Shown here in pieces: positions 9,286-26,287 of a stretch of 64,000 nucleotides of DNA (within the stretch, counting starts at the first letter, position 1; the number at the start of each line of letters is the position of its first letter). The translations under genes and the position numbers were made by a program. The notes under the pieces were generated by a model. The model searched no databases. It saw only the letters and a program-made list of their open reading frames with translations, and was not told the DNA's origin. Origin of the DNA: a virus; the IMG/VR virus record IMGVR_UViG_3300009506_000025, positions 1 through 64,000 of that record; one strand, 5' to 3'.

Positions 9286-12212
9286 GGGCTCGATCAACGC
9301 CGTACCGCTTCTGGCTCATAGCAGCACTCCTGCTTTCGGGAGTGCTGACGATGGCTAAGAATCTCAACGGCCTTACTCTCACGGCCCCTTCCAGCGATCC
9401 CAACATCCTGGTGGGCGAATCGTTCGATTGCACGCTTACTCCTTCGTTCAACGGGTCGGGAACTCCAAACCCATACACTCTACAGTGGGAGTGGAACGAG
9501 GGAGAGGGGGCCTATTCGGCAATCGGTACGACGCCGACGAACGGCCTCTACCACGCCGCCACGAACCCGCTAGTCAATATCCAAGTAGACGGTCCTTCTA
9601 CGCTTGTAGTCTATGGTGGCACTAGCGGCATCTTTCACGTCCGCGGGAATGGAAACAGCGGCAGCTACTACACGTCGGAGCAGCAGGTAACCGTTTCCAG
9701 CGGTTCTGCTACTCCGAGTTCCACGCCCTCCGCCACGCCTTCCGCGACTCCCAGCGGCACGCCTTCAGCTACACCGTCAGCCACTCCCTCTTCGACCCCC
9801 AGTGCGACCCCTTCGGCCACTCCAAGTGCCACCCCGTCCGCCACACCTAGCACCACGCCCACTCCCAGCTCAACCCCGTCGGCGACCCCAAGTTCAACAC
9901 CCTCGACAACGCCCACTCCCTCAAGTACACCCTCCGCCACACCTAGCGCCACACCTTCCACCACCCCGACGCCGTCGAGTACGCCTTCATCTACGCCCTC
10001 CGCTACGCCGAGTACGACACCAACTCCCTCTAGCACACCGAGTGCAACGCCTTCAGCCACGCCGAGCGCAACCCCGTCTTCGACTCCTAGTGCCACCCCG
10101 AGCGCAACCCCATCTGCAACTCCGAGCACCACGCCGACACCATCGAGTACGCCAAGTTCCACTCCATCGGCAACTCCCAGTACGACTCCGACCCCGAGTT
10201 CCACGCCGTCAGCGACGCCGAGCGCAACCCCCAGTACCACCCCGACGCCTTCTAGTACCCCGTCGGCCACCCCCTCGGCCACACCGTCGACGACCCCGAC
10301 GCCTTCGAGCACTCCAAGCGCTACCCCTTCAAGCACGAGGAGTTCCACTCCAAGCTCTACCCCGAGCACTACGCCAACTCCCACAATAACCGGTACGGGG
10401 ACAGTATCAGCTACACCCTCTTCTACGCCGAGTTCCACGCCGTCGACGACCCCGACAGGCACTCCAACTATCACCCCGACCGCTACGCCATCATCCACCC
10501 CTTCATCCACTCCCAGCAATACGCCCTCCACCACCCCTACCCCGTCTTCGACCCCCAGCGCGACACCCTCAGCAACCCCCAGCGCCACTCCCTCGGCCAC
10601 TCCAAGTGCCACCCCAAGCACAACCCCCACACCCAGTTCGACTCCTTCGGCCACTCCATCTTCGACGCCGTCTGCCACCCCAACCCCCAGTTCAACTCCG
10701 AGCGCCACGCCCTCTGCGACGCCCAGTACGACGCCGACACCGAGTTCCACTCCCTCTGCCACCCCCAGCAGTACACCATCCGGTGCCGCGTTGTCCGTAG
10801 ACGACATCGTTGTCACCTGGTCAACAGCGAGTGCCACGCCGAGTTCGACTCCCTCTAGTACGCCGAGCGCTACTCCCTCTAGCACCCCCTCCGCGACCCC
10901 CAGCACTACGCCGACGCCTTCCAGCACGCCGAGCAGCACGCCCTCCAGCACGCGCAGCTCGACTCCAAGTTCCACACCAAGTACGACCCCCACCCCGACA
11001 GTGACTGGAACGGGAACGGTATCGGCAACGCCGTCTTCTACTCCGAGTTCAACACCGTCCACTACCCCAACCGGAACCCCGACGCCGAGTAATACACCTT
11101 CGACTACGCCAACTCCCTCTTCAACTCCCAGCTCTACGCCGTCGGCAACGCCCTCGGCAACTCCCAGCGCGACACCTTCAGCGACCCCGTCGGCTACTCC
11201 GAGCGCGACACCTTCGACTACGCCGACACCCAGTAGCACCCCTTCCGCGACGCCATCAGCGACCCCGAGCACCACGCCAACGCCCTCCAGTACACCGTCG
11301 GCTACCCCTTCTGCGACGCCCTCCACGACACCGACCCCTAGCAGCACGCCCAGCGCCACTCCATCGGCCACCCCGTCAGGGACCCCTTCGTCGACCCCGA
11401 GTAGCACGCCAAGTAGCACGCCGAGCAACACACCCTCGACGACCCCCACGCCTTCGAGTACCCCCAGTGCGACGCCCTCGGCCACACCCTCGACCACCCC
11501 TACTCCATCGAGTACGCCGTCTTCCACTCCTAGTGCGACGCCTTCGACTACCCCAACGCCCTCCAGTACGCCCTCCAGCACGCGGAGTTCGACGCCCAGT
11601 TCAACTCCAAGTACAACACCTACTCCAACAATAACTGGCACCGGCACCGTATCCGCCACACCATCTTCCACTCCGAGCACGACCGGGACTCCAACCCTTA
11701 CCCCGACGGCAACTCCATCCTCGACTCCGTCCTCGACACCTAGCAATACTCCCTCGACAACACCAACGCCTTCTTCTACGCCGAGTGCTACACCCTCGGC
11801 TACTCCCTCCGGGACGCCCAGCAGCACAGCCTCTGCGACCCCGAGTAGTACGCCCAGTGCGACGCCAAGCAACACACCGTCGGCGACCCCCACTCCATCC
11901 TCAACGCCAAGCGCAACCCCGTCAGCCACTCCGAGCGCGACGCCGAGCAGCACGCCGTCTGCTACCCCAACCCCATCCAGTACACCGAGCGCGACGCCGT
12001 CGACGACGCCAACGCCGAGCAGCACGCCCTCATCTACACCCAGCGCGACACCCAGCAGCACCCCCAGCGCTACACCCTCAACGACCCCTACCCCATCCAG
12101 CACCCCCAGCTCCACTCCAAGTTCTACCGGCGCCGCCGCCAGTGCGGTTCCCATTGTCGGGAGCGGAGGAATCCACTCCCTTGTCGGAGGGAGACAGGTC
12201 ATAAATGGATGA
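9282..12212 (+). CDS. Mucin-like Pro/Ser/Thr repeat protein with N-terminal Ig-like domain
   Basis: ATGA-coupled start with a hydrophobic leader (alternative start at 9351); ~800 aa of (S-x-T-P)n; overlaps the first glycosyltransferase gene. Confidence 0.9.
9700..12130 (+). repeat. Degenerate 12-bp coding repeat encoding (S-x-T-P)n
   Basis: About 200 tetrapeptide units with heavily varied synonymous codons; 3 copies of [18 protein letters not shown](I/V)[10 protein letters not shown]. Confidence 0.95.
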
Positions 12213-12915
12213 TCTGACTGTGATCTACATCACCGATAGCGTGCTGGACCCCACGATAGCCCACGGGTGCAGGAAAATACTAGCCAGGGCCGCTGGAGAT
12301 CACCGAATCATAAGCGTATCGCAGGACTTCCTGGAATTTGGGGACAACCTCTGCGTGGGCCGGATCGGACGTTCGGTGTTATCGATGGAACAGCAGATCG
12401 AAGCAGGACTGGAAGCGGCCACCTCACGGTGGGTTGCGATCGCCGAACACGATTGCATCTACTCAGAGGAACATTTTCGTTTTCGGCCACCAGACGACCG
12501 GTTATTCTGGTACAACAGAAACGTCTGGATCTTGAGGACAGACATCCAACGGTTCTCCTACAGGGAGCGCAAGATTCAATCTCAGATGGTCTGCGACAGG
12601 AAGCTACTCCTATCGGCGACAAGGATGAAGCTGGAGGTGGTAGCCAATCCGGGCTGGGAAAAGATGCGTCCCATGGGAGAGCCGGGAGCGGCTGGGTACT
12701 ACAGGTCGCGCCAAAGGTGTAGAGGGGAGGAGCTGAAGCGAATTGTCGGAGAGTACGCTCTGCGATTTAGCTCGCAGCCATTTGGGACCGCAGTACCCAA
12801 TGTGGATATTTGGCACGGAGGCAATCTTAGGGGCAGGCGAACCGGACTAAATGGGCGCTATCGATTGGAACCTTGGGGAGAATACGCAGATATATGGAAG
12901 ACATTCAGAAGCTAA
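12205..12915 (+). CDS. GT-A fold glycosyltransferase-like, paralog of 15403-16128
   Basis: IISVSQ, AGLEA, EHD (DxD-like), YNRNVW. Confidence 0.7.
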
Positions 12916-13475
12916 TCCATCGCAGGTTCAAGATAAAGAAGCGCAGCGACAATGTCGTGCGAGGTGCTCGCGGAGATAGAGTAACCCTCGCGGCCCTATG
13001 GGGAGAGGTCGGCCTGAATCGAGGGGTGGAGGTCGGCGTATGCAGGGGGACGTTCTCCAAGATTCTCTGCCTCAACAATCCAAACATAGAGCTGTACTCG
13101 ATTGATCCGTGGTTCACCGGAGGGCGGGTTGGGCATCGCCGCGAGAGACATATGCGGAGAGCCATAAAGAAGCTGGCTCCATTTGCAGTCACCATCATCC
13201 GCAAGACCAGTATGGAGGCACTAGCCGACTTCGAGGACGGTAGCCTCGATTTCGCATTCATCGACGGAAACCACACGTTCGACTACGTAGCCCCGGATAT
13301 CATCTTCTGGTCAAAGAAGGTACGTAGCGGGGGAATGATCGGGGTCCATGACTACCACCGGCACCGCTGGGGTGGCGTGATCGAAGCCGTGAACGCCTAC
13401 ACGTTCTGCCACAACATCAACCCCTGGTACGTCACTTGGGAGGCCACGCCCACGGCGTTTTGGGTCAAGCCATGA
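12894..13475 (+). CDS. Class I SAM methyltransferase (Methyltransf_24-like)
   Basis: GVEVGV..G, IDPW, LDFAFIDGNH, W..KV..GG.I..HDY. Confidence 0.85.
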   Translation: MEDIQKLIHRRFKIKKRSDNVVRGARGDRVTLAALWGEVGLNRGVEVGVCRGTFSKILCLNNPNIELYSIDPWFTGGRVGHRRERHMRRAIKKLAPFAVTIIRKTSMEALADFEDGSLDFAFIDGNHTFDYVAPDIIFWSKKVRSGGMIGVHDYHRHRWGGVIEAVNAYTFCHNINPWYVTWEATPTAFWVKP

Positions 13476-14164
13476 AGCTCTCGATCATCATCCCGGTCCT
13501 CAACAGCCACGAGATCGTCCGGAGGCAGATGGTGCATTACTCCGCGATGCCTCTTCCTCCAGACGTGGAGGTGATCCTGGTGGACGATGGGAGTGATCCG
13601 CCTATCCCCCAATCCATGGATCGATACATCAACATCCTCCGAACGCACGATACCCGCCCCTGGACCCAGCCCAAGGCCAGGAACATTGGCGCCCGTGCGG
13701 CCTGCGGCGAGTTCCTGCTGTTCACGGACATCGACCACATCGTACCGGAAGACAGCGTGAAGTGGTGCATGGATTGTCAATACGATTTTTCCAAGTTCCG
13801 ACGCTACCTGGGCGTCCTGGACGAGTTCGGCAGGATCACCCAGGATCGACAGGTGCTGGAGCAATACGGGGTCGACAGGAAGAAAGGGCTCCGCGTCTCT
13901 TGCCATACCCTCAGCATGGTTGTCCGCCGGGACCTGTTCTGGGAGACGGGGGGATACCGAGAGAAACTCGGCAAGCATCCAACCCACGATGATGGACATA
14001 TGAAGAAGATGCTGGGGCGTCGAGTTCGTAGAGGGGAAATCACTCGCTGTCCCGACGGACACGGGGAGGACGAGCGTCCAGTGATCTACGTCTTCCCAAA
14101 CGGGAGGTTTGGCGGCAGCGAAAACCATAATCCCATGGGCCTGTTCCACAGCTTGCAGCGATGA
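13472..14164 (+). CDS. GT2 glycosyltransferase
   Basis: LSIIIPVLN, VDDGSD, ARNIGA, FTDID, GGYRE. Confidence 0.9.
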   Translation: MKLSIIIPVLNSHEIVRRQMVHYSAMPLPPDVEVILVDDGSDPPIPQSMDRYINILRTHDTRPWTQPKARNIGARAACGEFLLFTDIDHIVPEDSVKWCMDCQYDFSKFRRYLGVLDEFGRITQDRQVLEQYGVDRKKGLRVSCHTLSMVVRRDLFWETGGYREKLGKHPTHDDGHMKKMLGRRVRRGEITRCPDGHGEDERPVIYVFPNGRFGGSENHNPMGLFHSLQR

Positions 14165-14763
14165 AGATACTACCCCCAGCCAGCTATGCCGCATACCGCG
14201 CCGGCCAGCGGAAAAAGTACCGCAAAAAGCGGAACCACGTCTGGATCAATCGTCGAGAGTGGGACTTTCTGGCTGCTACGATTCGCGAATGTGCCAAAGA
14301 GCTACGCCAGGGGATCTGCCACGGCGTCCGGAAGGGGATCGAGTGCGACAGGCTATCGGAACTCCTGGAGATCCCCGTGATCGGGACGGAGATCGGGAAC
14401 CCTCACTGGCACAGGGTAGTAGCGAATTGGGATTTTCATAAGACAAAGCCTGAGTGGAACGAGCAGTTTTCGTTTGTGTACTCCAACGCCCTGGACCACT
14501 CCTACGACCCGAGCCTGGCCCTGGCGACCTGGGCCACGCAGCTTCACGTCGGCGGGATCATGGTCCTGCACTGGGCGACGGATGATTTGGAGCCCAGCAG
14601 CCCGGAGGACTGCTTCGGCGCGACCCTGGAGGAGTACGCAGAATTGGTAGGTGTGCATTGTAGCGAGGTGCGGCTTATACCCTCTCCCGTCAAAAGGGGA
14701 AACAGGACCCTTGTCGTTGGAACGCGCAATGAGACTCTCCATCGTGACCCCCGTGTTGGATAG
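14161..14763 (+). CDS. SAM methyltransferase-like protein
   Basis: CHGVR.G.E, GTEI, WDFH, FSFVYSNALDHSYDP...L..W...L..GG. Confidence 0.75.
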   Translation: MKILPPASYAAYRAGQRKKYRKKRNHVWINRREWDFLAATIRECAKELRQGICHGVRKGIECDRLSELLEIPVIGTEIGNPHWHRVVANWDFHKTKPEWNEQFSFVYSNALDHSYDPSLALATWATQLHVGGIMVLHWATDDLEPSSPEDCFGATLEEYAELVGVHCSEVRLIPSPVKRGNRTLVVGTRNETLHRDPRVG

Positions 14764-15406
14764 CCACGAGATCGTCCGTAGGCAGTTGCTCCACTACAAT
14801 CGGATGGATCTGCCGGACTCCGTGGAAATCCTCTTCATGGACGATGGGAGCGATCCGCCGCTGGAAGGGAACGGGCGGGTTACGGTTCACCGGACGAACG
14901 ACACGCGCAAATGGACGGAGCACATTGCCCGCAACAAGGGGGCACAACTAGCCCGCGGCGAATACCTGCTGATGATCGACGTCGACTACATCGTACCCGA
15001 GCAGACCATCCTCCGGGCCATCGCCTTCGACGGGGATCGCATGGACTTCGATAGGAGATTTGGGGTTCTCGATAGGGAGGGGAAGGTCGATACCAGCATC
15101 CAAACTCTTGCCGTGTGGGGCCTGCTTCCGAAGTGGCAACGCAGGCGGACCCCCAACCACCGAAGTCAGTACCTAATGCGAAAGTCGCTGTTTGAGAAGA
15201 TCGGCGGTTATCGCGAGGATCGCTGGGGTAAGGCTCACCCGAAGGGAGGCGGGGCGGGGCAGAAGTTCTTCCTGAATTGGCGGAGACAGGAGATCCCACT
15301 GCCGGAGGAACGGCCCATCGTCTACATGTTTCCCAACGGGAAGTATTGCGGAGATCTGGACTACAACCCGTTTGGATACTTTCACAAGCTGACACGCAAA
15401 GCATGA
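14729..15406 (+). CDS. GT2 glycosyltransferase, paralog of 13472-14164
   Basis: LSIVTPVLDSHEIVRRQ, MDDGSDPP, ARNKGA, IDVD, IGGYRE. Confidence 0.9.
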   Translation: MRLSIVTPVLDSHEIVRRQLLHYNRMDLPDSVEILFMDDGSDPPLEGNGRVTVHRTNDTRKWTEHIARNKGAQLARGEYLLMIDVDYIVPEQTILRAIAFDGDRMDFDRRFGVLDREGKVDTSIQTLAVWGLLPKWQRRRTPNHRSQYLMRKSLFEKIGGYREDRWGKAHPKGGGAGQKFFLNWRRQEIPLPEERPIVYMFPNGKYCGDLDYNPFGYFHKLTRKA

Positions 15407-16128
15407 CCGGAGGCATCGTCTACTACACGCACAACCGGGGTGACCCCATGATCCTCGCTGCCTGCCGCAGGCAGATCGACCGAGCAAGAGGAGAGATTCC
15501 TGTGGTAGCTGTATCGCAGAATCCGCTGGATTGGGGCGATCAGAATATCGTGATGAAGGGGATTGGGAGGACGGACCTGGCCATGTTCCGCCAGCAACTC
15601 GCGGGGCTGGAGGCCGTCGGAACCGACTACGTGTTTTTCTGCGAGCACGACGTACTCTACCACCCGAGCCACTTTACCTTTGTTCCCCCCACAGATGACA
15701 AATACTACTTCAACTGGAACGTCTGGGCCGTGGATGCTGACACGGGCCAAGCGCTTCACTACGACGGGATGCGGATGACCTCGGGGGTCGTGGCCTATCG
15801 CGATATCCTGATCGAGCACTACAGGAAGAAGATCGAGATAACGAGGAGGCGAGGAAAGTTCTCCCGGCAGCTCCTTGGATATGAGCCCGGTAAGCCGAAG
15901 TCCCGGGAGATGCTGGGGAACTACAGGCAGGGGAAGTTCTACTCCACACTGCCCAACATCGACATCAAGCACGACCGCAACATTACCCGGAAGCGATTCG
16001 CCCCAAGCGATTACCGGAACTGGACGCACATAATGGACTCGTGGACCCTGGCCGATTCCGTTCCCTACTGGGGAACGACCAAGGGTAGGTTCAGGGAATT
16101 CCTGGCAGAGGTGGCGAATGGTAATTGA
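15403..16128 (+). CDS. GT-A fold glycosyltransferase-like, paralog of 12205-12915
   Basis: VVAVSQ, AGLEA, EHDVLY, FNWNVW. Confidence 0.7.
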   Translation: MTGGIVYYTHNRGDPMILAACRRQIDRARGEIPVVAVSQNPLDWGDQNIVMKGIGRTDLAMFRQQLAGLEAVGTDYVFFCEHDVLYHPSHFTFVPPTDDKYYFNWNVWAVDADTGQALHYDGMRMTSGVVAYRDILIEHYRKKIEITRRRGKFSRQLLGYEPGKPKSREMLGNYRQGKFYSTLPNIDIKHDRNITRKRFAPSDYRNWTHIMDSWTLADSVPYWGTTKGRFREFLAEVANGN

Positions 16129-16933
16129 CTGCTTTCCGTTCTTCAACGAACTGGACCTGCTGGAGATCCGCCTCCACGAGCTGGCTCCCGTGGTGGACGT
16201 GTTCGTTCTCTCCGAGGCGACGCTGACGTTCACCGGGAAGCCAAAGCCCCTCTACTACCACGACAACCGGAGTCGCTTCAGGGAGTTCTCTGATCGCATC
16301 CACCACCTGGTCGTCTCCGATTACACGGGGATGAAGCTCAATGACACCCGCTCCATGGACCGGGAGCAGAAGCAACGGGGGCTGGACTGGATGGTGGAAC
16401 GCTTCAAGCCGGGCTTGCAGGATCTCGTGATCATGGCCGACGTGGACGAGATTCCCAGGGCCAGCACGATTGCCCAGGCCGAGAAGGAGACGGGGTGGAT
16501 TGCGGCGATGATTGAGATGCAGTTGTACTACTACTACATGAACTGCCGCGCCAAGGGGCGACCGGGGTCGTGGAGAAACCCCCGCCTGCTTCGCGTAAAC
16601 AGGGGAGAGAGGATTCACTACAACAGCACCCGGAAGGGGTGGCGAGACAAGGACTACTGGGACGCTGGGTGGCACTTCAGCTTTCTCCACGGGTCCGTCG
16701 CCGACATCCAGTACAAGGTCTCCTCGTACACCCACGCGCCGGAGTTCGACAACGACCATTACATGGCGCCTGAGCATATCAGCGACTGTATCGAACAGGG
16801 GAGGGATATCTTCCGCAGGAAGAGATACCAGTTTGAGTACCTCGATGACTTGGGATTTCTGCCCGAGTACGTGCAGAACCATCTCGATAGGTTTGCCAAG
16901 TACATTCACCAGCCATGCGAGACCTTAGCGTAA
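16118..16933 (+). CDS. GT17-like (MGAT3-type beta-GlcNAc transferase) glycosyltransferase
   Basis: IDCF.FFNELDLLEIRLHEL..VVD.FV..E...TFTG.PKPL, DVDEIP, GWHFSF. Confidence 0.9.
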   Translation: MVIDCFPFFNELDLLEIRLHELAPVVDVFVLSEATLTFTGKPKPLYYHDNRSRFREFSDRIHHLVVSDYTGMKLNDTRSMDREQKQRGLDWMVERFKPGLQDLVIMADVDEIPRASTIAQAEKETGWIAAMIEMQLYYYYMNCRAKGRPGSWRNPRLLRVNRGERIHYNSTRKGWRDKDYWDAGWHFSFLHGSVADIQYKVSSYTHAPEFDNDHYMAPEHISDCIEQGRDIFRRKRYQFEYLDDLGFLPEYVQNHLDRFAKYIHQPCETLA

Positions 16934-17844
16934 TCATCCCCGCCCGCAACGAGATGTTCCTGAACAGAACGGTCCAGGATGTCCTCGACCATGCGCGGGC
17001 CGATACCGAGGTGATCGTAGTCCTCGATGGCTACTGGCCTGATCCACCGTTGCCGGACAACGACCGGGTGATCGTACTCCACCACACCACGGCGATCGGA
17101 CAGAGGGCCGCCACCAACCAGGGGGCCAGGGTCTCGCAGGCGAAGTACGTGATGAAGCTCGACGCCCACTGCTCGCTGGACGAGGGCTTCGACGTGAAGC
17201 TCATGGAGGACTGCCAGCCGGACTGGACGATGATCCCGAGCATGTATAACTTCCACGCCTTTGATTGGAGATGTGTGGCCTGCGGGAACCAGACCTATCA
17301 AGGATTCAAGCCGTCGCTGTGCTCCAAGTGCAAGGCAACCGAGTTCGAGATGGTGGTGACCTGGGAGCCCCGCTGGAACCGAAAGACGGTCTCCTGGCGG
17401 TTCGACAAGAACATGCAGTTCCAGTATTGGCGGAAACACTGCAAGAGGGCCGAGGTCAAGGGCGACCTGATCGAGACGATGTGCTTCATCGGGGCCTGCA
17501 TGTTGATGGAGAGGAAAAGGTTCTGGGACCTCGGGGGGATGGACGAGGCTCACGGAAGCTGGGGCCAGTTCGGCACGGAGATCTCCTGCAAGTCCTGGCT
17601 CTCCGGGGGAAAGCTGATCACGAGCCAGAAGACCTGGTTTGCCCACCTCTTCCGCACCGGGAACTTCAGCCACAATGGCCATTCTACGTTTCCCTACCCG
17701 CTGAGCCAGCAGGCCATTGATCGGGCCAGGGCATACTCCAAGGACCTCTGGCTGAACGACAAGTGGCCCGGAGCGATATTGCCGCTTTCCTGGCTAGTTG
17801 ATAGATTTAAGCCAGTTCCCGATTGGCATGAGGGGGCGAGATGA
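16915..17844 (+). CDS. GT-A glycosyltransferase resembling polypeptide GalNAc transferases (GT27-like), with Zn-ribbon insert
   Basis: SVIIPARNE, LDAHC (DxH), LGGMD...SWG..GTEISCKSWLSGG, AHLFR...FPY; CxxC...CxxC insert. Confidence 0.75.
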   Translation: MRDLSVIIPARNEMFLNRTVQDVLDHARADTEVIVVLDGYWPDPPLPDNDRVIVLHHTTAIGQRAATNQGARVSQAKYVMKLDAHCSLDEGFDVKLMEDCQPDWTMIPSMYNFHAFDWRCVACGNQTYQGFKPSLCSKCKATEFEMVVTWEPRWNRKTVSWRFDKNMQFQYWRKHCKRAEVKGDLIETMCFIGACMLMERKRFWDLGGMDEAHGSWGQFGTEISCKSWLSGGKLITSQKTWFAHLFRTGNFSHNGHSTFPYPLSQQAIDRARAYSKDLWLNDKWPGAILPLSWLVDRFKPVPDWHEGAR

Positions 17845-18676: not shown

Positions 18677-18677
18677 G

Positions 18678-19412: not shown

Positions 19413-20255
19413 ATGCTAAGCCACTCGATCATCATCCCGCACCGGGACTACTCCAAGTACCTAGAGATGTGCCTCTGGTCGATCCGGTGCTCCGCGCACT
19501 GCTGCGACGTCGATGACTACGAGGTCCTGGTAGTAGACCAGGGCTCGAAGCTGCCCCCGACCCTCTACGATCCGCACGATCGCTTGATCAAGCAGCCCCG
19601 CGCGCCAGCCTATAGGTACATCCGCTACTTCAACAAGCCGATGGCACTGAACGAGGGGATCAGGCAGGCCAAGGGCGAGATCCTGACCTTCCTCGACGCG
19701 GACGCGATCGTTGGCGAACTCTGGATGGATTGCGTGAGCTGGTTGAAGGGAGAGAATGACCGTAACGCCATGACAAAACTTTGCTACCGCGTCCGCTATC
19801 TCCCCGAGACCGCATTGATTCGGATGGCGGCCCTGGAGCCGGACGCTAGGGAGAAGATGGTCTACGGTGAACGGGGCTTCTTTGACTGCTACCGAGACTT
19901 CCAGCGGGCGGTGGAGTGCTACGGGGAGCCCGACAAGGACCCGCACAACAATCCTCCAGGCAGGAAGTGGGACGGGGATGAGCCACCGGAGCATCCGATC
20001 TTCGGGAACTCGCAGTTTTCGATCCATCGCGACCAGCTCGGGAAGATCCGGTTCGACGAGAAGTACGTCGGCCGCGGGTTCGAGGACATCGCCATGAACC
20101 GGGAGATCTGGAGACGGAAGGGGGACAACTACCGAGCGGGGATCGTGCTCGATTCAAGGCACGCGATGTTCCACGTCCGCAACCCCAGCCAGGGGGAGAA
20201 GTGGGGGGCAGGCAAGCAGAACACCGCCAATCTCAGGAGGTACAACAAGACATGA
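19413..20255 (+). CDS. GT2/GT7C-like glycosyltransferase
   Basis: SIIIPHRD, VVDQGS, FNKP.A.N.G, FLDAD, FDE.Y.G.GFED. Confidence 0.85.
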   Translation: MLSHSIIIPHRDYSKYLEMCLWSIRCSAHCCDVDDYEVLVVDQGSKLPPTLYDPHDRLIKQPRAPAYRYIRYFNKPMALNEGIRQAKGEILTFLDADAIVGELWMDCVSWLKGENDRNAMTKLCYRVRYLPETALIRMAALEPDAREKMVYGERGFFDCYRDFQRAVECYGEPDKDPHNNPPGRKWDGDEPPEHPIFGNSQFSIHRDQLGKIRFDEKYVGRGFEDIAMNREIWRRKGDNYRAGIVLDSRHAMFHVRNPSQGEKWGAGKQNTANLRRYNKT

Positions 20256-21253
20256 GAGTCCTGGTTGCGGGGGCTGGAGGGTTCATCGGGGGGCACTTGG
20301 CCAGGGCGCTGGTCAAGGCTGGGCATGAAGTCCACGCCGTCGACATCAAGCCCTACGAGGAATGGTGGCAAGGGGCGGGGGCCGGAGGTCCCGCTTCCCT
20401 GTTCTTCTCGACTAACATTGCCTGCGAGAGAGAGGCAACATACCACTGCACAGGGATGGATTGGGTCTTCAATCTGGCCTGCGATATGGGGGGGATCGAG
20501 TTTATCGAGGGAAACAAGGCCCGCTGCATGGACTCGGTTCTGATCAACGCCAACCTGCTACGGGCTGCCAGGAAGAACAGGGTTAAGCGATACCTCTACA
20601 CCTCCTCGGCCTGCGTCTACCGGGCGGATCGGCAGGACGGCCCGGATCAGCCGCCGCTGAAGGAGGAGGATGCTTACCCGGCGATGCCCGAGGATGGCTA
20701 TGGCTGGGAGAAACTCTTTTCGGAGCGACACTGCCGGCACTACATGGAGGACTACGGCCTGGACTGCCGCGTGGTCCGGCTGCACAACGTATACGGCCCC
20801 CACGGGTCCTGGTGCGATGGACGCGAGAAGGCCCCGGCGGCGATTTGCCGCAAGGTGGCCGAGGCGAGGCTCCAGGGAGACGGGGAATTTATGATCTACG
20901 GGGATGGGACCCGGACCAGGACCTTCATGTGGATCGAAGACTGTGTCGAGGGGCTCCAGAGGATCATGGAGTCGGAGATCCGCCAACCGATCAACCTGGG
21001 TATCCAGGACGAGGTGGTCACGATCAACCGCCTGGTGGAACTCGTCCAAGAGGTGGCAGGAACGGACCTGGAGGTGAACCACGACCTCTCCCGGGCCCAG
21101 GGCGTCTACGGCCGATCTAGCGACAATACCATGATTCGCAGAGAGCTAGACTGGGAGCCGAGGACCCCGTTGCTGAGCGGCCTCGCCCGTACCTATCCCT
21201 GGATCGAGGACCAAGTGAGGAAGCGAGAATGCTTGAGTACCCCCACTCGCTGA
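20252..21253 (+). CDS. GDP-mannose 3,5-epimerase-like NAD-dependent epimerase
   Basis: GAGGFIG, FNLACDMGG..FI, SSACVY, PEDGYGWEKL, HNVYGP.G.W..GREKAPAA.CRK, GRSSDN. Confidence 0.9.
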   Translation: MRVLVAGAGGFIGGHLARALVKAGHEVHAVDIKPYEEWWQGAGAGGPASLFFSTNIACEREATYHCTGMDWVFNLACDMGGIEFIEGNKARCMDSVLINANLLRAARKNRVKRYLYTSSACVYRADRQDGPDQPPLKEEDAYPAMPEDGYGWEKLFSERHCRHYMEDYGLDCRVVRLHNVYGPHGSWCDGREKAPAAICRKVAEARLQGDGEFMIYGDGTRTRTFMWIEDCVEGLQRIMESEIRQPINLGIQDEVVTINRLVELVQEVAGTDLEVNHDLSRAQGVYGRSSDNTMIRRELDWEPRTPLLSGLARTYPWIEDQVRKRECLSTPTR

Positions 21254-21876
21254 CAGCGGAGGAGATCCGGGACCTCGTGGGCGTGGCCCCCCTGATGCTG
21301 GAGATCGGCTGCCACGACGGCTCGGACACGGCGAAGTTTCTCAGGGCGATGCCCGAGGCGATCATCCACTGCTTCGAGCCCTACGAGAACCCGAGGCGGA
21401 GATTCCGTGAGAGCGTCGGGACCTCCAAGCGGGTCCGTCTCTATCCGGTGGCGGTCTGTGACATCGATGGTCAAGTTGAGTTCTACGCCTCGACCGGCGC
21501 CGCCGGTGGCCGGGAGGACTGGGACTACTCCGGGAGCATCAACCGGCCGACGGGCCACCTCAAGCGGTCCCCGGAGATCGCCTTCAAGCCCCCGATCACG
21601 GTCGAAGGGATGCGACTGGACACCTGGTTCGAGGAGCACTCGCTGCCGAAGATCGACTTCATCTGGGCCGATGTCCAGGGTGCCCAACGGAAGGTGATCG
21701 AGGGTGGACAGCGAGCCCTACTGGCGACCCGGTATCTCTATATCGAGAGGCACCGATGGCCGTTGTACCAGGACGAGCCCACCCCGGACGAGCTGCTCAG
21801 ACTCCTACCGGGATTCAACCCCCTGGCGGAGTACGCCCGAGAGAACGTACTCCTGGAAAACAGGTACGCCAAGTGA
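21229..21876 (+). CDS. FkbM-family methyltransferase
   Basis: LEIGCHDG, CFEP, IDFIWADVQGA. Confidence 0.9.
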   Translation: MLEYPHSLTAEEIRDLVGVAPLMLEIGCHDGSDTAKFLRAMPEAIIHCFEPYENPRRRFRESVGTSKRVRLYPVAVCDIDGQVEFYASTGAAGGREDWDYSGSINRPTGHLKRSPEIAFKPPITVEGMRLDTWFEEHSLPKIDFIWADVQGAQRKVIEGGQRALLATRYLYIERHRWPLYQDEPTPDELLRLLPGFNPLAEYARENVLLENRYAK

Positions 21877-22772
21877 GCTGCGAGTTTCACAGAGCGGCGG
21901 ATACGCTGCGGAAGATCAACAGCCTGGGCGTGGCCGGACGCGCGAAGGATGCCTCGGACAGCATCAAGGTGATCGACTCCCTGCTCTCGACCTACAACCA
22001 GGCGAAGTCAGCTAACCACCTGGCAAAGTTTCAACCGGCGATGGACGGGTTCCTAGCAGCCACACGCAAGTCGATGACGGAACTCGTCTACGCGGTGGAA
22101 CAGATGGCCGAGATCGTCGGTCCCCAAAACTTCAACGCCTCGCCCCCGGCGTTGGAGTCGATGGCCGCCATGCGTAGCCGCAACTTCCCGGAGGCACCCC
22201 AGGTGGGCGCCCTGCACGGGGAGGATGCGATTATAAGGGATCTGCTTCCGGAGTCGGTCGGCCACTACGTCGACATCGGGGCCTGGCGCCCAGTAGAGCA
22301 GTCGAACACCTGGGCCCTCTACCAGCGGGGATGGAGGGGGCTGTTGATCGAACCGGTCCCCCAGGCTTGGGGCGCTATTTTGCATCAGCGACCAGGGGAT
22401 TTTCTGGCGCCCTGGGCAGTGAGCGACACCGCAGGACCGACCCGCATGTGGGTCAACGGCCCCCTGAGCACGATCCGGCCGGACAAGGCCCTGGCGGAGT
22501 CGAGTGAGATCGTGGTGCAAGGGCTTCCCTTGAATCAGATCTTGAAATTCTTTCCCACCATCCGTGATCAGTGCCTGATGTGCAGCATCGACGTCGAAGG
22601 CGCTGAAGAGGCGATCCTGAAATCTACCGACTGGAAGAAGTTCTCGCCCAGGATTCTAGTGGTGGAGTTCATCCACGGAAACCAAGACTCCATCAAGGCG
22701 ATCCTGACCGCAGCGGGTTACCGGAAGCAGGCCGACACCCGCAACAACCTGATCTTCAGCCGGAAGGAATAG
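21873..22772 (+). CDS. FkbM-family methyltransferase with N-terminal helical extension
   Basis: GTGA-coupled start; YVDIGA..P...SNT...Y..GW.G.LIEP, SIDVEGAE. Confidence 0.85.
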   Translation: MSCEFHRAADTLRKINSLGVAGRAKDASDSIKVIDSLLSTYNQAKSANHLAKFQPAMDGFLAATRKSMTELVYAVEQMAEIVGPQNFNASPPALESMAAMRSRNFPEAPQVGALHGEDAIIRDLLPESVGHYVDIGAWRPVEQSNTWALYQRGWRGLLIEPVPQAWGAILHQRPGDFLAPWAVSDTAGPTRMWVNGPLSTIRPDKALAESSEIVVQGLPLNQILKFFPTIRDQCLMCSIDVEGAEEAILKSTDWKKFSPRILVVEFIHGNQDSIKAILTAAGYRKQADTRNNLIFSRKE

Positions 22773-22775
22773 CTG

Positions 22776-23534
22776 GTGAGTACGATCCGCTGGCGAGAGA
22801 TCGAATGGTGGTACGTCAACCTCTCCACCCGCCCCGACCGCCGGGAGCACGCCGAGGAGCAATTCGCCCGCCATGGCCTCCAGGCCCGGCGCTTCGAGGC
22901 GTACACACCGGACCAGTGGAATGGGCCCGGCGCGGACGTCGCCATGATGCGTCCGACTCCCGGGGCGATCGGTTGCTTTATGTCCCAACGCGAGGTCACA
23001 CGAACTGTGGAGGGGACAGATAGGGTGGTGGCCGTCTGCGAGGACGACGTGCTGTTCTGCGACGATCTCTGCGATCGCCTCCAGTACATCGAGGAGAACT
23101 TCCATAAACCCTGGGACGTCTTCTGGCTGGGATCGACCTACCACGTCAACCCGCCAGTCTGGCACACCAAGGATCTGGGAAGGGATTTCTGCCAGACAGA
23201 CGTGAAACATATCCACCGGGCCTACGGGCTCTGGGGGACCTACGCCTACCTGGTCAACGGCCGTAGTGTCTCCAGGATCATGGAACTCTTCCAGCGGGAC
23301 CTGCCAAAGGCCCGGGGGATCGACGATCTCTACATCATGCTGGAGCCGGAGATCAACAGCTACTGCTTCACCCCCGGGATGGCGTTTCAGATCGACGGGA
23401 AGACGAACATCGGCGTAGGGGGAGACGGGATGACCATCTTCTCGAACTTCCACAAGCTGGGGCCCTATGTCTTCACGAAGCGGCTGGAGGATTTCGACTA
23501 CGACTCGTTCAATTGGGCGGAGGGGAAGCGATGA
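22776..23534 (+). CDS. GT25 (LPS biosynthesis-type) glycosyltransferase
   Basis: YVNL..RPDRR, G.IGC..S, EDDV.F, W.T.AYLVN. Confidence 0.85.
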   Translation: MSTIRWREIEWWYVNLSTRPDRREHAEEQFARHGLQARRFEAYTPDQWNGPGADVAMMRPTPGAIGCFMSQREVTRTVEGTDRVVAVCEDDVLFCDDLCDRLQYIEENFHKPWDVFWLGSTYHVNPPVWHTKDLGRDFCQTDVKHIHRAYGLWGTYAYLVNGRSVSRIMELFQRDLPKARGIDDLYIMLEPEINSYCFTPGMAFQIDGKTNIGVGGDGMTIFSNFHKLGPYVFTKRLEDFDYDSFNWAEGKR

Positions 23535-24292
23535 GCGAACTCACCGAGAAGGAATTTCACGATCAGGTCGAGGACACCTACCGGAGGATGTACCTTGAGC
23601 CCGATGCGCCCGCCCCATCGATGACGGCCGCGGAGTACCGCGGGCTCTACGGCGAGGTGGTGACCAACGACTGCTACGGACTGGGGGCGATAGAGTTTCA
23701 GCCCGAGGTGATCTTCGATCTAGGGGCGAACGTGGGGGTGTTTACCAACTTTGCACGCCGGCTTTTTCCCGAGGCAACGATCATAGCCGTCGAGCCCGAC
23801 GAGCAGAACATGCAGAACATGAGCTACCTGGCAACGGATCACAGCCAGACGGTGTTCATGGAGTACGCAATCGGACTTGGTCTGGTCTATTCTGCCGGAA
23901 GCCTAGCGAACGGAGCCCACCGTTCCTATATCTGCGATGGATCAGAGTACCTCCGACCATTTACCCAGGAGGGCGGGCGGTACAAGCTCTCCGATGTTCC
24001 TGCAATCACCCTCTCCGCACTGATGGACCTTTTTCCGATCCAGCCGCGTTTCATCAAGGTGGATATTGAAGGAGGGGAGGCGGCGATTTTCGAGCACGAG
24101 AAATCGATGCTGGCGCTCGCCGAAACGGAGGCATTTGCAATAGAGCTACACGATCGGTGGTGGGCGACCAGACTACAATCGCTGCTATCTGAGACCCACT
24201 CTGCCGAGTGGGAGCCTCGGACCTGCGTGCTGAAGGCAAGGAAGAGATCGCCGGCGACACCCCCATCGCGAGGAAGACCAACTCAGGAGTAA
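23531..24292 (+). CDS. FkbM-family methyltransferase
   Basis: IFDLGANVG.F, AVEP, FIKVDIEGGE. Confidence 0.9.
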   Translation: MSELTEKEFHDQVEDTYRRMYLEPDAPAPSMTAAEYRGLYGEVVTNDCYGLGAIEFQPEVIFDLGANVGVFTNFARRLFPEATIIAVEPDEQNMQNMSYLATDHSQTVFMEYAIGLGLVYSAGSLANGAHRSYICDGSEYLRPFTQEGGRYKLSDVPAITLSALMDLFPIQPRFIKVDIEGGEAAIFEHEKSMLALAETEAFAIELHDRWWATRLQSLLSETHSAEWEPRTCVLKARKRSPATPPSRGRPTQE

Positions 24293-24295
24293 CCC

Positions 24296-24841
24296 GTGGA
24301 AAAGATCACGAGCAGGGCACACTTCTACAAGCTCCTCGACAGACCGGAGTTGAAGCAGGCGGCGGCGGAGGTCGGGGTAGCTGAAGGCAGGTATTCCCGC
24401 GAGATCCTTTCGTGGGGAATAGGTAAGCTCTACCTTGTAGACCTGTGGGAGGAGATCGGGGGGATGAAGGGGTGCCCAAGCACCGGGCAACACCAGCAGA
24501 ACTACGACTCCTGCCTCCGTATCGTCGAACAATTTCCTGGTCGGGTGATCCTCCTGAAGGGATGGTCCTGGGAGCAGGCCAAGAATGTTCCCGACAATTC
24601 GCTGGGCCTGGTCCATCTCGACGCGCACCACTACTACGAGTCGGCGGTCAAAGACCTGGCGGCATGGTGGCCGAAGCTCCTGCCCGGGGGTGTGATGTCG
24701 GGCCATGATTATCTGGCCCACGAGTACACGGTCAGACAGGCAGTGGACGAGTTTGCTACAGCAAGAAAGATCGAGGTCCTTGTTGATAGGCCAGACGATC
24801 CCCGCAATGCCTCGTTCTATTTCAGAAAGCCCCCGGCATGA
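24296..24841 (+). CDS. Methyltransf_24-like methyltransferase
   Basis: AEVGVAEG, VDLW, LDAHHYYE, W.PKL.PGG..SGHDY. Confidence 0.85.
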   Translation: MEKITSRAHFYKLLDRPELKQAAAEVGVAEGRYSREILSWGIGKLYLVDLWEEIGGMKGCPSTGQHQQNYDSCLRIVEQFPGRVILLKGWSWEQAKNVPDNSLGLVHLDAHHYYESAVKDLAAWWPKLLPGGVMSGHDYLAHEYTVRQAVDEFATARKIEVLVDRPDDPRNASFYFRKPPA

Positions 24842-25614: not shown

Positions 25615-25624
25615 GTGGATCATA

Positions 25625-26287
25625 GTGGACGTCAGATTCACGAACATCACGCCCGTAGAGCCGCTGGTCCGAAACCCCGATAGCATCTCGGATGGGGAGA
25701 AGACAGTTATCGTCGTGGGTCTCGGCCGGGGAGGGACATCCGTCGTTGCGGCGGTGCTGGATGCCTTGGGGGTCTACATGGGACCGCGGGAGGAGCTGAG
25801 TACACAAGGGGCATTTGAGTCCGCCGTGTTCATCCATGGAACCCGCCAGGATCGCGAGGCGGAGATCGCCAGACTCAATGAATTGCATTCCATCTGGGGC
25901 TGGAAATGGCCCTATGGCGCTGATTTGCTTAGCGATATGTATGCCGGAGTGAGGAACCTCCATCCGATCTTTGTCTTCCGGGATGTCGTCGCCCTAATGC
26001 AGTCCTACGCGGTCCACGCCAACGAGTCGGTGGACGAAGTTGCCGAGAACCTTTGGGGGAGGTACTGCAATCTTTACGAGGCGGCGATGGGGACGGAACT
26101 CCCGGCACTACTGGTCAGTTTCGAGCGGGTGAAGATGCGCCCGGTGGATTTCGTCCACAGCGTAGCAGACTTCCTGCGTCTTGAGATCACTAGTTCCCAA
26201 GTTTCGGAGGCAGCGTCCCGGGTCAGTTTCCGTGGAGGATACCTGATCATGCCGGACGAGTACACGGATCGGAGGAAGGCCAAATGA
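25625..26287 (+). CDS. PAPS-dependent sulfotransferase-like protein
   Basis: 5'PSB-like IVVG.GRGGTS, WGWK.P, 3'PB-like IFVFRD.....QS, LVSFE. Confidence 0.75.
   Translation: MDVRFTNITPVEPLVRNPDSISDGEKTVIVVGLGRGGTSVVAAVLDALGVYMGPREELSTQGAFESAVFIHGTRQDREAEIARLNELHSIWGWKWPYGADLLSDMYAGVRNLHPIFVFRDVVALMQSYAVHANESVDEVAENLWGRYCNLYEAAMGTELPALLVSFERVKMRPVDFVHSVADFLRLEITSSQVSEAASRVSFRGGYLIMPDEYTDRRKAK

Follow-up and report, generated by a model that had tools for sequence, protein, structure and literature searches.

What would a phage do with an enzyme that resembles the polypeptide GalNAc-transferases (ppGalNAc-Ts) of family GT27? To our knowledge, ppGalNAc-Ts are regarded as eukaryotic enzymes, and we know of no GT27 member that acts on anything other than peptides or glycopeptides. 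The window analysed here is a stretch of 64,000 nucleotides taken from a complete uncultivated phage genome of about 72.7-72.8 kb. At positions 16915..17844, its plus strand carries an ORF with an ATG start that encodes a GT-A glycosyltransferase of 309 residues. Sequence, profile and fold place this enzyme in a GT27-like family, as a 'type A' member with the HxFR signature. In many phages and candidate-phyla bacteria the gene occurs beside giant S/T-rich repeat proteins, which points to mucin-like glycoproteins made by the phages themselves. A search of the literature found no account of a phage GT27-like enzyme or of phage S/T-P repeat glycoproteins.

The N-terminal half of the enzyme is a nucleotide-sugar-binding region (residues 5-98; 16927..17208, plus strand) that matches Pfam Glycos_transf_2 (PF00535) with an E-value of 6.9e-13 and a score of 49.3 bits, above the cut-off of 23.3. 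The match is limited to these residues and cannot separate GT2 from GT27, because ppGalNAc-T clusters in the ESM Atlas carry PF00535 too. An earlier, sequence-only reading of this DNA had listed the motifs LDAHC, LGGMDEAHGSWGQFGTEISCKSWLSGG and FAHLFRT...FPY, and all of them are present in the translation. LDAHC occupies residues 82-86 (17158-17172) and contains the predicted metal-binding DxH motif D83-A-H85 (17161..17169, plus strand), which aligns with the D-x-H (DSH) of GalNAc-T2. DxH is found in 253/255 domain copies of the family. The Gal/GalNAc-T-like motif LGGMDEAHGSWGQFGTEISCKSWLSGG (residues 206-232; 17530..17610, plus strand) is supported by alignment to the GalNAc-T2 stretch and by column conservation, and its key residues are D210 and E211, G214, W216 and G217, E222, W228, and G231 and G232. 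In the phmmer alignment to GalNAc-T2, W216-G217 corresponds to the WG of WGGEN, and E222, W228 and G231-G232 correspond to E..W.CGG. FAHLFRT spans residues 242-248 (17638-17658) and FPY residues 259-261 (17689-17697). The segment at 17644..17700 (plus strand) comprises H244-x-F246-R247, which aligns with GHVFR of GalNAc-T2, and the loop 248-262, where model confidence is low; H244 is the predicted third metal ligand. D83, H85 and H244 are invariant in the 38 aligned family members, and W216, G217, E222, W228, G231, F246 and R247 are each present in at least 35 of them (F246 and R247 in 35 each). Pfam Glyco_transf_7C (PF02709) matched residues 191-234 below threshold (E 0.11; 12.6 bits, with the cut-off at 23). 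In one related ESM Atlas cluster, Glyco_transf_7C is found on 52% of the members.

Searches by sequence and by fold converge on the ppGalNAc-Ts. A phmmer search of all PDB chains at E up to 1 returned 18 sequences, 16 of which are ppGalNAc-Ts, with GalNAc-T2 at the top (6.9e-8). The profile of the 38 members gave a best E-value of 1.6e-15 against the PDB, and its top 14 matches are all ppGalNAc-Ts. The C-terminal half (profile positions 157-275) is matched by ppGalNAc-Ts only, whereas GT2 structures match the N-terminal half only. The AlphaFold2 model (pLDDT 91.6, pTM 0.91) is one compact GT-A domain comprising all 309 residues, and its pLDDT falls below 50 at residues 252-258, the place equivalent to the mobile loop of ppGalNAc-Ts. 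The sequence-only reading had proposed Foldseek as a check, and the 31 matches listed, down to rank 47, are all ppGalNAc-Ts. A VIA-align comparison with 48,161 representative chains placed mouse GalNAc-T1 at the top (Z 26.2, 264 residues, 2.6 A), followed by Toxoplasma gondii GalNAc-T3 (Z 24.3); the best chain that is not a ppGalNAc-T is the chondroitin polymerase K4CP (Z 18.2). In an independent structure search of the ESM Atlas, the first neighbours outside the family were eukaryotic ppGalNAc-T clusters (TM 0.77 over 254 residues). The GT27-like identity proposed earlier is thus upheld by sequence, profile, fold and the ESM Atlas. The resemblance to the ppGalNAc-T catalytic domain is far beyond chance, and the GT27-like family is the nearest non-eukaryotic relative of that domain among the searches made.

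The enzyme is not a full member of GT27. It is without the lectin domain, the membrane anchor and the glutamate of WGGEN, and it carries a Zn-ribbon insert. The earlier view that the ricin lectin and the anchor are missing agrees with the model, in which a single GT-A domain spans the 309 residues. The protein has no Ricin_B_lectin match, and the chain ends after the catalytic domain. There is neither anchor nor stem; the GT-A fold begins at residue 4, which leaves no N-terminal extension. The glutamate had also been noted as missing, and its position is occupied by F219. The family column reads F11 Q10 M7 Y4 V3 (n=38), with E in 0/38. The counterparts of both E334 and N335 of GalNAc-T2 are unconserved in the family, where the two columns hold F/Q/M/Y/V and G. 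Residues T143, H145 and R201 of GalNAc-T2, which we take to contact UDP, align with P9, R11 and A60 of the phage enzyme. The donor and the chemistry of the GT27-like enzyme may therefore differ.

The insert, read from the sequence as C120-x2-C123-x12-C136-x2-C139 (17272..17331, plus strand), has exactly the CxxC-x12-CxxC spacing claimed for it before. In the AlphaFold2 model, strands 104-120 and 144-158 form a long beta-hairpin with the insert at its tip. In the family alignment, the four ribbon cysteines are conserved in 23 to 28 of the 38 members, and the strict CxxC..CxxC pattern occurs in 62/136 type-A copies and in 0/119 type-B copies. Profile matches to the ribbon are weak (Pfam Zn_ribbon_11, E 0.039; an NCBIfam rubredoxin-like model, E 0.0056).

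The GT27-like family is large, with 524 clusters at 50% identity (E of 1e-30 or below). Its members come from uncultivated tailed phages and from metagenome-assembled genomes (MAGs), many of them Patescibacteria. Cultured phages contributed none: tblastn with the GT27-like enzyme and with a fused form found no match in 50,697 deposited phage genomes. The gene is part of a mobile cassette, together with a GT-A family that we call EHD, O-methyltransferases and GT2 enzymes. This cassette recurs in phages that have no head, terminase or portal gene in common with the present phage. Elsewhere, its parts are often fused into single polypeptides, such as P0151, P0124, P0122 and P0134, and in P0122 and P0124 a Methyltransf_24 domain is joined to GT27-like domains. 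Two to five GT27-like copies per locus are present in 81/154 loci.

The present phage has two EHD genes, both on the plus strand. Copy 1 (12205..12915) is a paralogue of copy 2 (15403..16128), and they were found by tblastn in 59/79 and 61/79 IMG/VR loci, respectively. Copy 2 is a near-obligate partner of the GT27-like gene. Among 77 new IMG/VR loci anchored on the EHD family, 76 carry a GT27-like gene, and in the one locus without it the DNA ends right at the EHD gene. An EHD-GT27-like fusion is present in 67 of the best 150 family representatives. By sequence, both EHD proteins gave nothing significant against PDB, Pfam and NCBIfam. The AlphaFold2 model of copy 2 (pLDDT 95.5) is a generic GT-A fold whose best Z of 12.7 is spread across many unrelated families. 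A single EHD protein used as an IMG/VR query gave no match, nor did queries with the terminase, the serine recombinase and the GT2 enzyme at 26284-27072 of this phage.

The other genes of the neighbourhood also lie on the plus strand. Two paralogous GT2 glycosyltransferases, at 13436..14164 (Pfam Glycos_transf_2 E 7e-12) and 14651..15406 (Pfam E 4.4e-8), are found in 26/79 and 25/79 IMG/VR loci, and a Methyltransf_24 (TylF/CmcI-like) O-methyltransferase at 12873..13475 (Pfam E 1.9e-17) is found in 46/79. A GT17-like glycosyltransferase (16118..16933; Pfam Glyco_transf_17 E 8.5e-41) is specific to the glycan island of the present phage. The remainder of the island (19413..29184), described from Pfam and PHROG scans, includes unknowns. 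It encodes a GT2 enzyme (19413-20255), a GDP-mannose 3,5-epimerase-like protein (20201-21253; E 1e-82 to GDP-mannose 3,5-epimerase in the PDB, next family 1e-26), three FkbM methyltransferases (21229-21876, 21756-22772 and 23513-24292), a GT25 enzyme (22776-23534), a second Methyltransf_24 (24296-24841), a GT34-like enzyme (24838-25614), a weakly matched sulfotransferase-like protein (25625-26287) and a further GT2 enzyme (26284-27072).

The proposed acceptor of this machinery is a mucin-like repeat protein of 953 residues (9351..12212, plus strand), described from its translation, composition and period-4 analysis. Its N-terminal part is a globular domain of some 120 residues, after which come an 862-residue [T-P-S-x]n region and a conserved C-terminal motif of about 22 residues, which is common to loci L016, L057, L013 and L015. 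The longest ORF opens at 9213 and a further ATG lies at 9282, and a hydrophobic stretch read from either start was considered as a signal peptide. We rejected it as upstream read-through, because GGGAG lies 8 nt upstream of the ATG at 9351 and the homologue in L017 begins at the equivalent methionine. The repeat is conserved as protein, and the underlying DNA repeats are degenerate. Just upstream lies a gene for a LamG/ConA-like lectin-fold protein (8161..9285, plus strand; Pfam Laminin_G_3 E 8.5e-23), and in other loci (L199, L037) LamG is fused to S/T-rich repeats. ppGalNAc-Ts reportedly prefer Pro at odd positions around S/T. In the 953-residue protein, the fraction of Pro around S/T is 0.39 at each of the positions -3, -1, +1 and +3 and 0.05-0.18 at even offsets, and in 95 S/T-rich ORFs the median is 0.30 at odd offsets against 0.01-0.02 at even ones. 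Among the partner ORFs there are also Pro-poor S-x-S-x repeats (Pro fraction 0.01-0.03), which are at odds with Pro-guided recognition.

The association of the cassette with such proteins extends across the family. An ORF was counted as S/T-rich if it had at least 20 windows of 60 residues with S+T of at least 45%, a criterion set before any control was run, and the counts were taken within flanks of +/-10 kb. S/T-rich ORFs were found in 51/79 IMG/VR loci with a GT27-like gene and in 41/73 MAG loci. After de-duplication at 80% identity, they were found in 72/108 loci, as opposed to 5/100 control phage sugar-gene loci without a GT27-like gene; the loci in these counts are related to one another, so that Fisher p values computed from them cannot be taken as true probabilities. 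With an ORF length of at least 300 residues, the counts are 62/108 and 1/100, and for de-duplicated loci of at least 15 kb they are 39/42 and 3/57. Control loci that happen to carry a GT27-like gene have an S/T-rich ORF in 5/5 cases. Of 97 S/T-rich ORFs, 93 lie on the same strand as the GT27-like gene, with a median gap of 2.8 kb. The 36/108 cluster representatives without an S/T-rich ORF are mostly short loci, and 3/42 remain once the length is 15 kb or more. No S/T-rich ORF lies within 10 kb in several MAG loci whose cassettes are large, such as L214, L219, L223, L227 and L237.

O-glycosylation of S/T-P repeat proteins is the best reading of the cassette. The explanation as a whole, in which the cassette O-glycosylates the [T-P-S-x]n protein and the GT27-like enzyme adds the first sugar, seems to us somewhat probable. 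The sequence-only reading had named the enzyme the initiating peptide O-glycosyltransferase. The S/T-rich ORFs beside the gene in 39/42 long loci strongly support the peptide part of that name, whereas 'initiating' was not established. The same repeat protein could be glycosylated with the EHD enzyme or a GT2 enzyme placing the first sugar and the GT27-like enzyme only extending it, which we judge unlikely but by no means negligible. EHD is as tightly linked as the GT27-like gene (76/77 loci, and the fusions in 67 of the best 150 representatives), and the association therefore cannot say which enzyme acts on the peptide. The family-wide loss of the WGGEN glutamate would also suit an extender, as would the two to five GT27-like copies in 81/154 loci, where not all copies can be initiators. 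Against this, the EHD model has generic GT-A likeness only and no kinship to peptide-modifying transferases, whereas profile and VIA-align put the GT27-like enzyme specifically closest to the ppGalNAc-Ts, which are not known to act on anything but peptides or glycopeptides. Homology to ppGalNAc-Ts is the sole point that favours the GT27-like enzyme over EHD as the likely peptide-acting partner, and on this ground its addition of the first sugar is plausible.

The acceptor need not be a protein at all. GT2, GT25, FkbM and TylF-like methyltransferases and an epimerase are typical of polysaccharide loci, and the product of the cassette could be a methylated oligo- or polysaccharide attached, for instance, to a lipid or to a glycan of the host envelope, with the S/T-rich proteins as mere neighbours from a fibre or adhesin module. 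The 3/42 long loci without an S/T-rich ORF are in line with such an arrangement. However, the ORFs scanned gave no Pfam match to a flippase, a polymerase, a polyprenyl-phosphate glycosyltransferase or Gtr-type families, and S/T-rich ORFs occur in just 5/100 controls without a GT27-like gene, yet in 5/5 controls that hold one. We regard a non-protein acceptor as improbable. Glycosylation of phage DNA, by hypermodification of hydroxymethylated bases, is more improbable by far. DNA-modifying phage glycosyltransferases are known (Pyle et al. 2024, as cited in PMC12619734), but among the ORFs scanned across the genome there was no thymidylate-synthase-like hydroxymethylase or other base-modification gene, and on this account we rejected the idea. 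It would also leave the link to S/T-rich ORFs and the kinship to GT27 unexplained.

The fold, the motifs, the size of the family, the cassette with its fusions and the link to S/T-rich repeat ORFs are what the data show. The acceptor, the order of steps, any donor sugar and the location in the virion are inferred, and we picture O-glycosylation of the repeat protein as follows. The ORF at 16915-17844 would be a soluble, metal-dependent GT-A glycosyltransferase with the predicted metal triad D83, H85 and H244, and it would act in the host cytoplasm within an assembly line carried by the phage. Other members of this line would be the EHD enzyme (two copies here), the two GT2 enzymes and the sugar O-methyltransferases, joined in the present phage by the GT17-, GT25- and GT34-like enzymes and the GDP-mannose 3,5-epimerase. 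The sugars would be attached to hydroxyl groups within the period-4 [T-P-S-x]n repeats of the protein at 9351-12212. The GT27-like enzyme, by homology the likeliest to act on a peptide, may place the first sugar on Ser/Thr next to Pro, and the remaining enzymes of the cassette may lengthen and methylate the glycan. The product would be a bottle-brush, mucin-like glycoprotein. It is probably a fibre of the virion, headed by the N-terminal globular domain and attached through the short, conserved motif at its C-terminus.

A bolder form of this proposal is offered tentatively, as one that we think more apt to fail than to hold. Tailed phages and Patescibacteria-type MAG contigs may make true mucins through a lectin-less GT27-like initiator acting on period-4 S/T-P repeats, with fused or adjacent GT-A enzymes and O-methyltransferases extending the glycans to give bottle-brush fibres on the surface of virions or cells. 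In that case eukaryotes would not have invented mucin-type O-glycosylation, and the catalytic domain of the ppGalNAc-Ts would have, in prokaryotes and viruses, a large sister family that may be its ancestor or donor. Should the enzymes work as proposed, the origin of mucin-type O-glycosylation becomes directly testable, and a widespread class of phage surface glycoproteins is defined. These could influence how phages adhere, which hosts they infect, how well they are protected against proteases and grazers, and how they behave in mucus and biofilms. Glyco-engineers would also gain small soluble enzymes of bacterial type with which to O-glycosylate designed repeats densely, and a GT27-like gene beside an S/T-rich ORF would serve as the search rule for similar systems.

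The closest known system is that of the ppGalNAc-Ts (GalNAc-T2, 4d0t and 2ffu; mouse GalNAc-T1, 1xhb and 8v9q; T. gondii GalNAc-T3, 8uhv and 6s22). The phage enzyme shares with them the GT-A domain, the predicted metal site formed by D-x-H and a distal His, the W-G...E...W..GG stretch, the H-x-F-R motif and aromatic residues in the F-x-Y-W region. The loop after H-x-F-R, which is mobile in ppGalNAc-Ts, may be mobile here too, as its low pLDDT hints. Its partner proteins are S/T-P repeats, as are the mucins of the ppGalNAc-Ts. In contrast, identity is only about 20%, and the ricin-type lectin, the anchor and stem, and equivalents of the WGGEN Glu and Asn are missing. The enzyme is encoded by phages and prokaryotes, is predicted to be cytoplasmic and has the Zn-ribbon hairpin insert; a further GT-A enzyme and methyltransferases usually accompany it or are fused to it. 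E. coli K4CP and other GT2 enzymes (2z86, 1h7l, 6p61) have the GT-A fold and the N-terminal Glycos_transf_2 half in common with the phage enzyme. They are more distant, with Z of 17-18 over 182-215 aligned residues as against 24-26 over 261-264 for ppGalNAc-Ts, and have no profile match to the C-terminal half of the family.

Gram-positive bacteria have serine-rich repeat adhesins that GtfA/GtfB and follow-on transferases O-glycosylate in the cytoplasm; the adhesins are then exported through an accessory Sec system and end as surface fibres. The long Ser-rich repeats and the dedicated gene cluster are alike, and glycosylation is proposed here. Their initiator is a GT-B (GT4) pair, whereas in the present case, set in a phage, the candidate initiator is GT27-like and the repeat a strict S/T-P unit of period 4. 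PDB 5hea (GalT1), a follow-on transferase of the adhesin system, is among the PDB matches of the GT27-like enzyme by phmmer, profile and VIA-align. Mimivirus fibrils and chlorovirus capsids are glycosylated by virus-encoded machinery, and a comparable provision for virion surface proteins is proposed here. Those are eukaryotic viruses with other enzyme families, and we know of no GT27-like initiator or S/T-P repeat substrate described in them. Mimivirus R699 (PDB 9dyt) aligns to the GT27-like enzyme with Z 13.6 in VIA-align.

Among phages, the virion protein glycosylation that we found cited concerns a few mycobacteriophages only, namely Che8, Corndog and Myrna (Freeman et al. 2023, as cited in PMC12363180 and PMC12619734). 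The tblastn search of the 50,697 deposited phage genomes had no match, and the mycobacteriophage enzymes are therefore not close relatives. The principle may be shared, in that the phage encodes glycosyltransferases which add sugars to its own structural proteins (PMC12363180, PMC12619734), as is proposed here. In the mycobacteriophages, as these two sources describe them, the glycans sit on capsid and tail-tube subunits, at their C-termini, whereas in the present phage a dedicated giant repeat protein would carry them.

The 309-aa ORF at 16915-17844 on the plus strand belongs to a family of GT27-like transferases that is coupled to mucin-like repeat proteins and occurs in phages and in metagenome-assembled genomes (MAGs) of candidate phyla. 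The motifs of polypeptide GalNAc-transferases (ppGalNAc-Ts, CAZy family GT27) that the sequence-only reading had listed are all found in the ORF, in the order it gave. The CxxC-x12-CxxC zinc ribbon it described has exactly that spacing (C120, C123, C136 and C139), and its remark that the WGGE glutamate is not conserved holds, with F219 aligning at the WGGEN glutamate of GalNAc-T2 (T2). Pfam recognizes Glycos_transf_2 over the N-terminal half only (residues 5-98, E 6.9e-13). Against all PDB sequences, 16 of 18 matches of the protein are ppGalNAc-Ts, and the top match is T2 (6.9e-8, in two stretches). In this alignment D83/H85 corresponds to DSH, G193 to GG, and W216-G217 to the WG of WGGEN; E222, W228 and G231-G232 fall on the following E, W and GG, and H244-L-F246-R247 falls on H-V-F-R. 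The aligned T2 positions, by PDB chain numbering, are presumably D224, H226, G308, W331, H359, F361 and R362.

Profile and structure comparisons point the same way. The 14 best PDB matches of the family profile are all ppGalNAc-Ts (1.6e-15 to 1.5e-9). Its C-terminal half is matched by ppGalNAc-Ts only, and ordinary GT2 structures match positions 2-96 only. The AlphaFold2 model is confident (pLDDT 91.6, pTM 0.91) and poorly defined solely at residues 252-258, after H-x-F-R, where ppGalNAc-Ts have a mobile loop. Foldseek against the PDB gave ppGalNAc-Ts throughout among the matches listed (31 rows, to rank 47). Among 48,161 representative chains compared all against all by structure, the top-ranking were mouse GalNAc-T1 (Z 26.2, 264 aligned residues, rmsd 2.6 Å) and Toxoplasma gondii GalNAc-T3 (Z 24.3, 261 residues, 2.6 Å), followed by the K4CP chondroitin polymerase (Z 18.2, 215 residues, 3.0 Å), below which numerous GT-A enzymes rank. 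Independently, the nearest clusters in the ESM Atlas are viral GT2 proteins, and the first structural neighbours beyond the family are eukaryotic ppGalNAc-T clusters (TM 0.77, 254 aa). ppGalNAc-Ts are thus the best matches by PDB sequence, profile, Foldseek and structural search, and the closest Atlas neighbours outside the family; in these comparisons the enzyme does not cluster with ordinary GT2 enzymes, the grouping that would have spoken against the earlier reading.

The family is large. A word-indexed protein search returned 3,323 similarly long relatives and 1,975 longer ones. The top 120 of the former, nearly all unnamed, have 63-87% identity and lengths of about 309 aa. When 1.84 billion cluster representatives were searched exhaustively with the family profile, 524 matched at E<=1e-30 and 2,346 at E<=1e-10. 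No match was found by tblastn in 50,697 deposited phage genomes with either this protein or a fused relative. IMG/VR yielded 89 matching stretches, from which 79 loci were kept, and GTDB species genomes yielded 117, from which 73 were kept. The GTDB records, on contigs up to 568 kb long, are MAGs or SAGs without exception, and many of them carry a Patescibacteria label (Woese-, Levy-, Davies- and Saccharibacteria, WWE3) or the label 'uncultured Gammaproteobacteria'. When 38 diverse members are aligned, P9, D38, G39, G62, R64, N68, D83, H85, W118, G193, G231, W241 and H244 are invariant, and E222, W216, G217, F246 and R247 nearly so. The ribbon is an insert in most of these members, and a subgroup is without it. 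The gene is present in two or more copies in 81 of 154 loci, and second to fifth copies are common. Of 255 copies, 253 retain DxH. Copies of type A (n=136), defined by 40% identity or more to the window enzyme, have HxFR, with the strict ribbon pattern in 62; type B copies (n=119) have HxHK and the ribbon in none.

The window covers the initial 64 kb of one 72,807-bp contig. Its first 100 bases, the longest stretch checked, are repeated at 72,663, which indicates a terminal direct repeat of about 145 bp (1-145 and 72663-72807). The contig probably represents a complete, circularly assembling phage genome. It encodes a major head protein (30993-32108; phrog_9953, E 1.4e-20), a large terminase (33739-35484; phrog_2, E 1.7e-13), a serine recombinase, an HTH regulator, a YqaJ exonuclease, RusA and a DNA methylase. 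A pattern scan found no IMG/VR relatives of the terminase or the serine recombinase. Elsewhere, a 136-aa protein (1928-2338, plus strand) carries a ribosome modulation factor domain (PF04957, E 3.7e-8), which could make it a hibernation factor encoded by the phage. The fibre-like genes are closely preceded by a gene for a FeeM-like N-acyl amino acid synthase domain (6626-7264, plus strand; PF21926, E 3.7e-26). In the early or lysogeny region, a DUF2201 metallopeptidase/VWA-like protein (53409-54698, minus strand; E 2.1e-31) adjoins a weak AAA_5 (MoxR-like) ATPase (55000-56220, minus strand).

The GT27-like gene lies in an island of about 17 kb (12.2-29.2 kb) of co-directional genes that, by Pfam and PHROG, holds little besides sugar enzymes: GT2s, GT17-like, GT25 and GT34-like enzymes, two Methyltransf_24 and three FkbM methyltransferases, an epimerase and a weak sulfotransferase-like protein. 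The epimerase (20201-21253, plus strand; 28 relatives in IMG/VR) is closely related to GDP-mannose 3,5-epimerase (E 1e-82 to the plant enzyme structures, next family 1e-26), which suggests synthesis of GDP-L-galactose or GDP-L-gulose for use in the glycan. The GT17-like enzyme (16118-16933, plus strand; Pfam E 8.5e-41) belongs to the same family as the bisecting GlcNAc transferase, and its gene runs at the 3' end into the start of the GT27-like gene; the enzyme has 77 relatives in IMG/VR contigs, and five of these loci also hold a GT27-like gene. ATGA stop/start overlaps join a LamG gene to the upstream ATG of the mucin-like ORF (9282-9285) and a GT2 to an EHD gene (15403-15406), and they fit translational coupling along the island. 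Directly 3' of the GT27-like gene, on the same strand, are a 71-aa Cys-rich protein (17841-18056) and a 206-aa protein (18056-18676). The first ~100 aa of the latter are 45-76% identical at the equivalent position in six other loci, and PHROG gives it a weak 'tail assembly' match (E 4.9e-5).

With window proteins as tblastn queries, a few neighbours turn up repeatedly in the 79 IMG/VR loci. The two EHD proteins, a second GT-A family, match in 59 loci (12205-12915, plus strand) and 61 loci (ORF 15277-16128, protein from 15403, plus strand), a Methyltransf_24 (12873-13475) in 46, and two GT2s in 26 (13436-14164) and 25 (14651-15406). None of the window's head, terminase, portal and tail-region proteins was found in these loci by tblastn, and the cassette is mobile between unrelated phages. 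The EHD proteins are paralogues with a conserved E-H-D motif, and their model (pLDDT 95.5) has a generic GT-A fold (best Z 12.7). Cassette parts are often fused into single polypeptides: GT27-like plus EHD (P0151), type A plus type B plus methyltransferase (P0124), type A plus EHD plus type B plus methyltransferase (P0122), and type A plus type B plus EHD (P0134). Among the 150 best representatives, 67 have an EHD domain and 16 have two GT27-like domains.

The cassette is associated with S/T-rich ORFs, defined by at least 20 windows of 60 aa at S+T >=45%. This threshold was set once, applied to the 79 loci, and only afterwards to control loci retrieved with the island's epimerase and GT17-like sugar genes as queries. 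An S/T-rich ORF is present in 51 of the 79 loci, in 5 of 100 controls without the GT27-like gene, in all five controls that happen to hold it, and in 41 of 73 MAG loci. After de-duplication at 80% identity, 72 of 108 clusters have one (controls 5/100), as do 39 of 42 at least 15 kb long (controls 3/57); for ORFs of at least 300 aa the counts are 62/108 and 1/100. The Fisher p values of about 1e-20 exaggerate the strength of the association because the loci are related to each other, and the contrast with the controls is large all the same. The S/T-rich ORFs share the strand of the GT27-like gene in 93 of 97 cases, at a median distance of 2.8 kb.

In the window, the repeat protein (953 aa, 9351-12212, plus strand) lies directly upstream of the island. 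Its strict [T-P-S-x]n array of 862 aa contains 258 T, 250 S, 202 P and 78 A, and the region has a GC content of 0.65 and a GC skew of -0.42. As DNA the array is degenerate (Tandem Repeats Finder gives only short arrays with 69-86% matches), and therefore the repeat is maintained as protein. Over 95 repeat ORFs, Pro occupies offsets -3, -1, +1 and +3 from S/T (median 0.30 each) and is nearly absent at even offsets (0.01-0.02); a few ORFs are Pro-poor S-x-S-x arrays. The proteins have a globular N-terminal part followed by a repeat stalk. This part is a LamG/ConA-like domain in several loci (L199, L037), and in the window LamG is a separate upstream gene (8161-9285). A C-terminal motif of ~22 residues is conserved between the window protein and distant loci (L016, L057, L013, L015). 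On the 568-kb Saccharibacteria-labelled contig, tail-collar and collagen-like genes flank the cassette and two S/T-rich proteins at one end, and genes for a peptidoglycan-binding lysin and an integrase flank them at the other; this locus is a prophage fibre module. On a WWE3-labelled contig (L203), a natural GT27-like plus EHD fusion (10001-11731, 576 aa) adjoins a 2,323-aa S/T-rich repeat ORF (12096-19067), with TatA/TatC and an IS200 transposase. No phage genes are in view there and the context is not obviously viral; the system may serve cell-surface proteins of candidate-phyla bacteria too.

Most simply, these enzymes would form a cytoplasmic pathway that O-glycosylates the S/T-rich repeat proteins. 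Transfer to the peptide would fall to the GT27-like enzyme, glycan extension and methylation to its EHD, GT2 and methyltransferase partners, and the product would be a mucin-like fibre. The homology, the fold, the conserved predicted metal ligands, the movement of the cassette among unrelated phages, the fusions and the association with S/T-rich ORFs are shown; we infer the acceptor, the first-acting enzyme, the donor and the location in the virion. The main weakness of the proposal is that EHD and the GT27-like enzyme are inseparable by co-occurrence (76 of 77 loci). The sequence-only reading of an initiating peptide O-glycosyltransferase is partly supported: the GT27-like kinship and the link to S/T-rich ORFs stand, and homology makes the GT27-like enzyme the likelier initiator, with EHD a less likely candidate. 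Full-text literature searches turned up no account of either such an enzyme or S/T-P repeat glycoproteins in phages. The nearest phage precedent is mycobacteriophage virion glycosylation (Freeman et al. 2023, as cited in PMC12363180 and PMC12619734).

Compared with GT27 itself, the phage enzyme is without the lectin domain and membrane anchor, as the earlier reading had observed, and without the stem. The Glu/Asn of WGGEN is conserved nowhere in the family, and the predicted catalytic pocket departs from that of ppGalNAc-Ts at this position. Several T2 residues that we take to be UDP contacts also differ. These pocket differences likewise limit the proposed mechanism. The Pfam Glyco_transf_7C match is below threshold (E 0.11), and a zinc-ribbon hairpin is inserted. 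Because of the missing domains, the unconserved WGGEN residues, the sub-threshold match and the ribbon, we class the family as a GT27-like sister family and not as a member of GT27.
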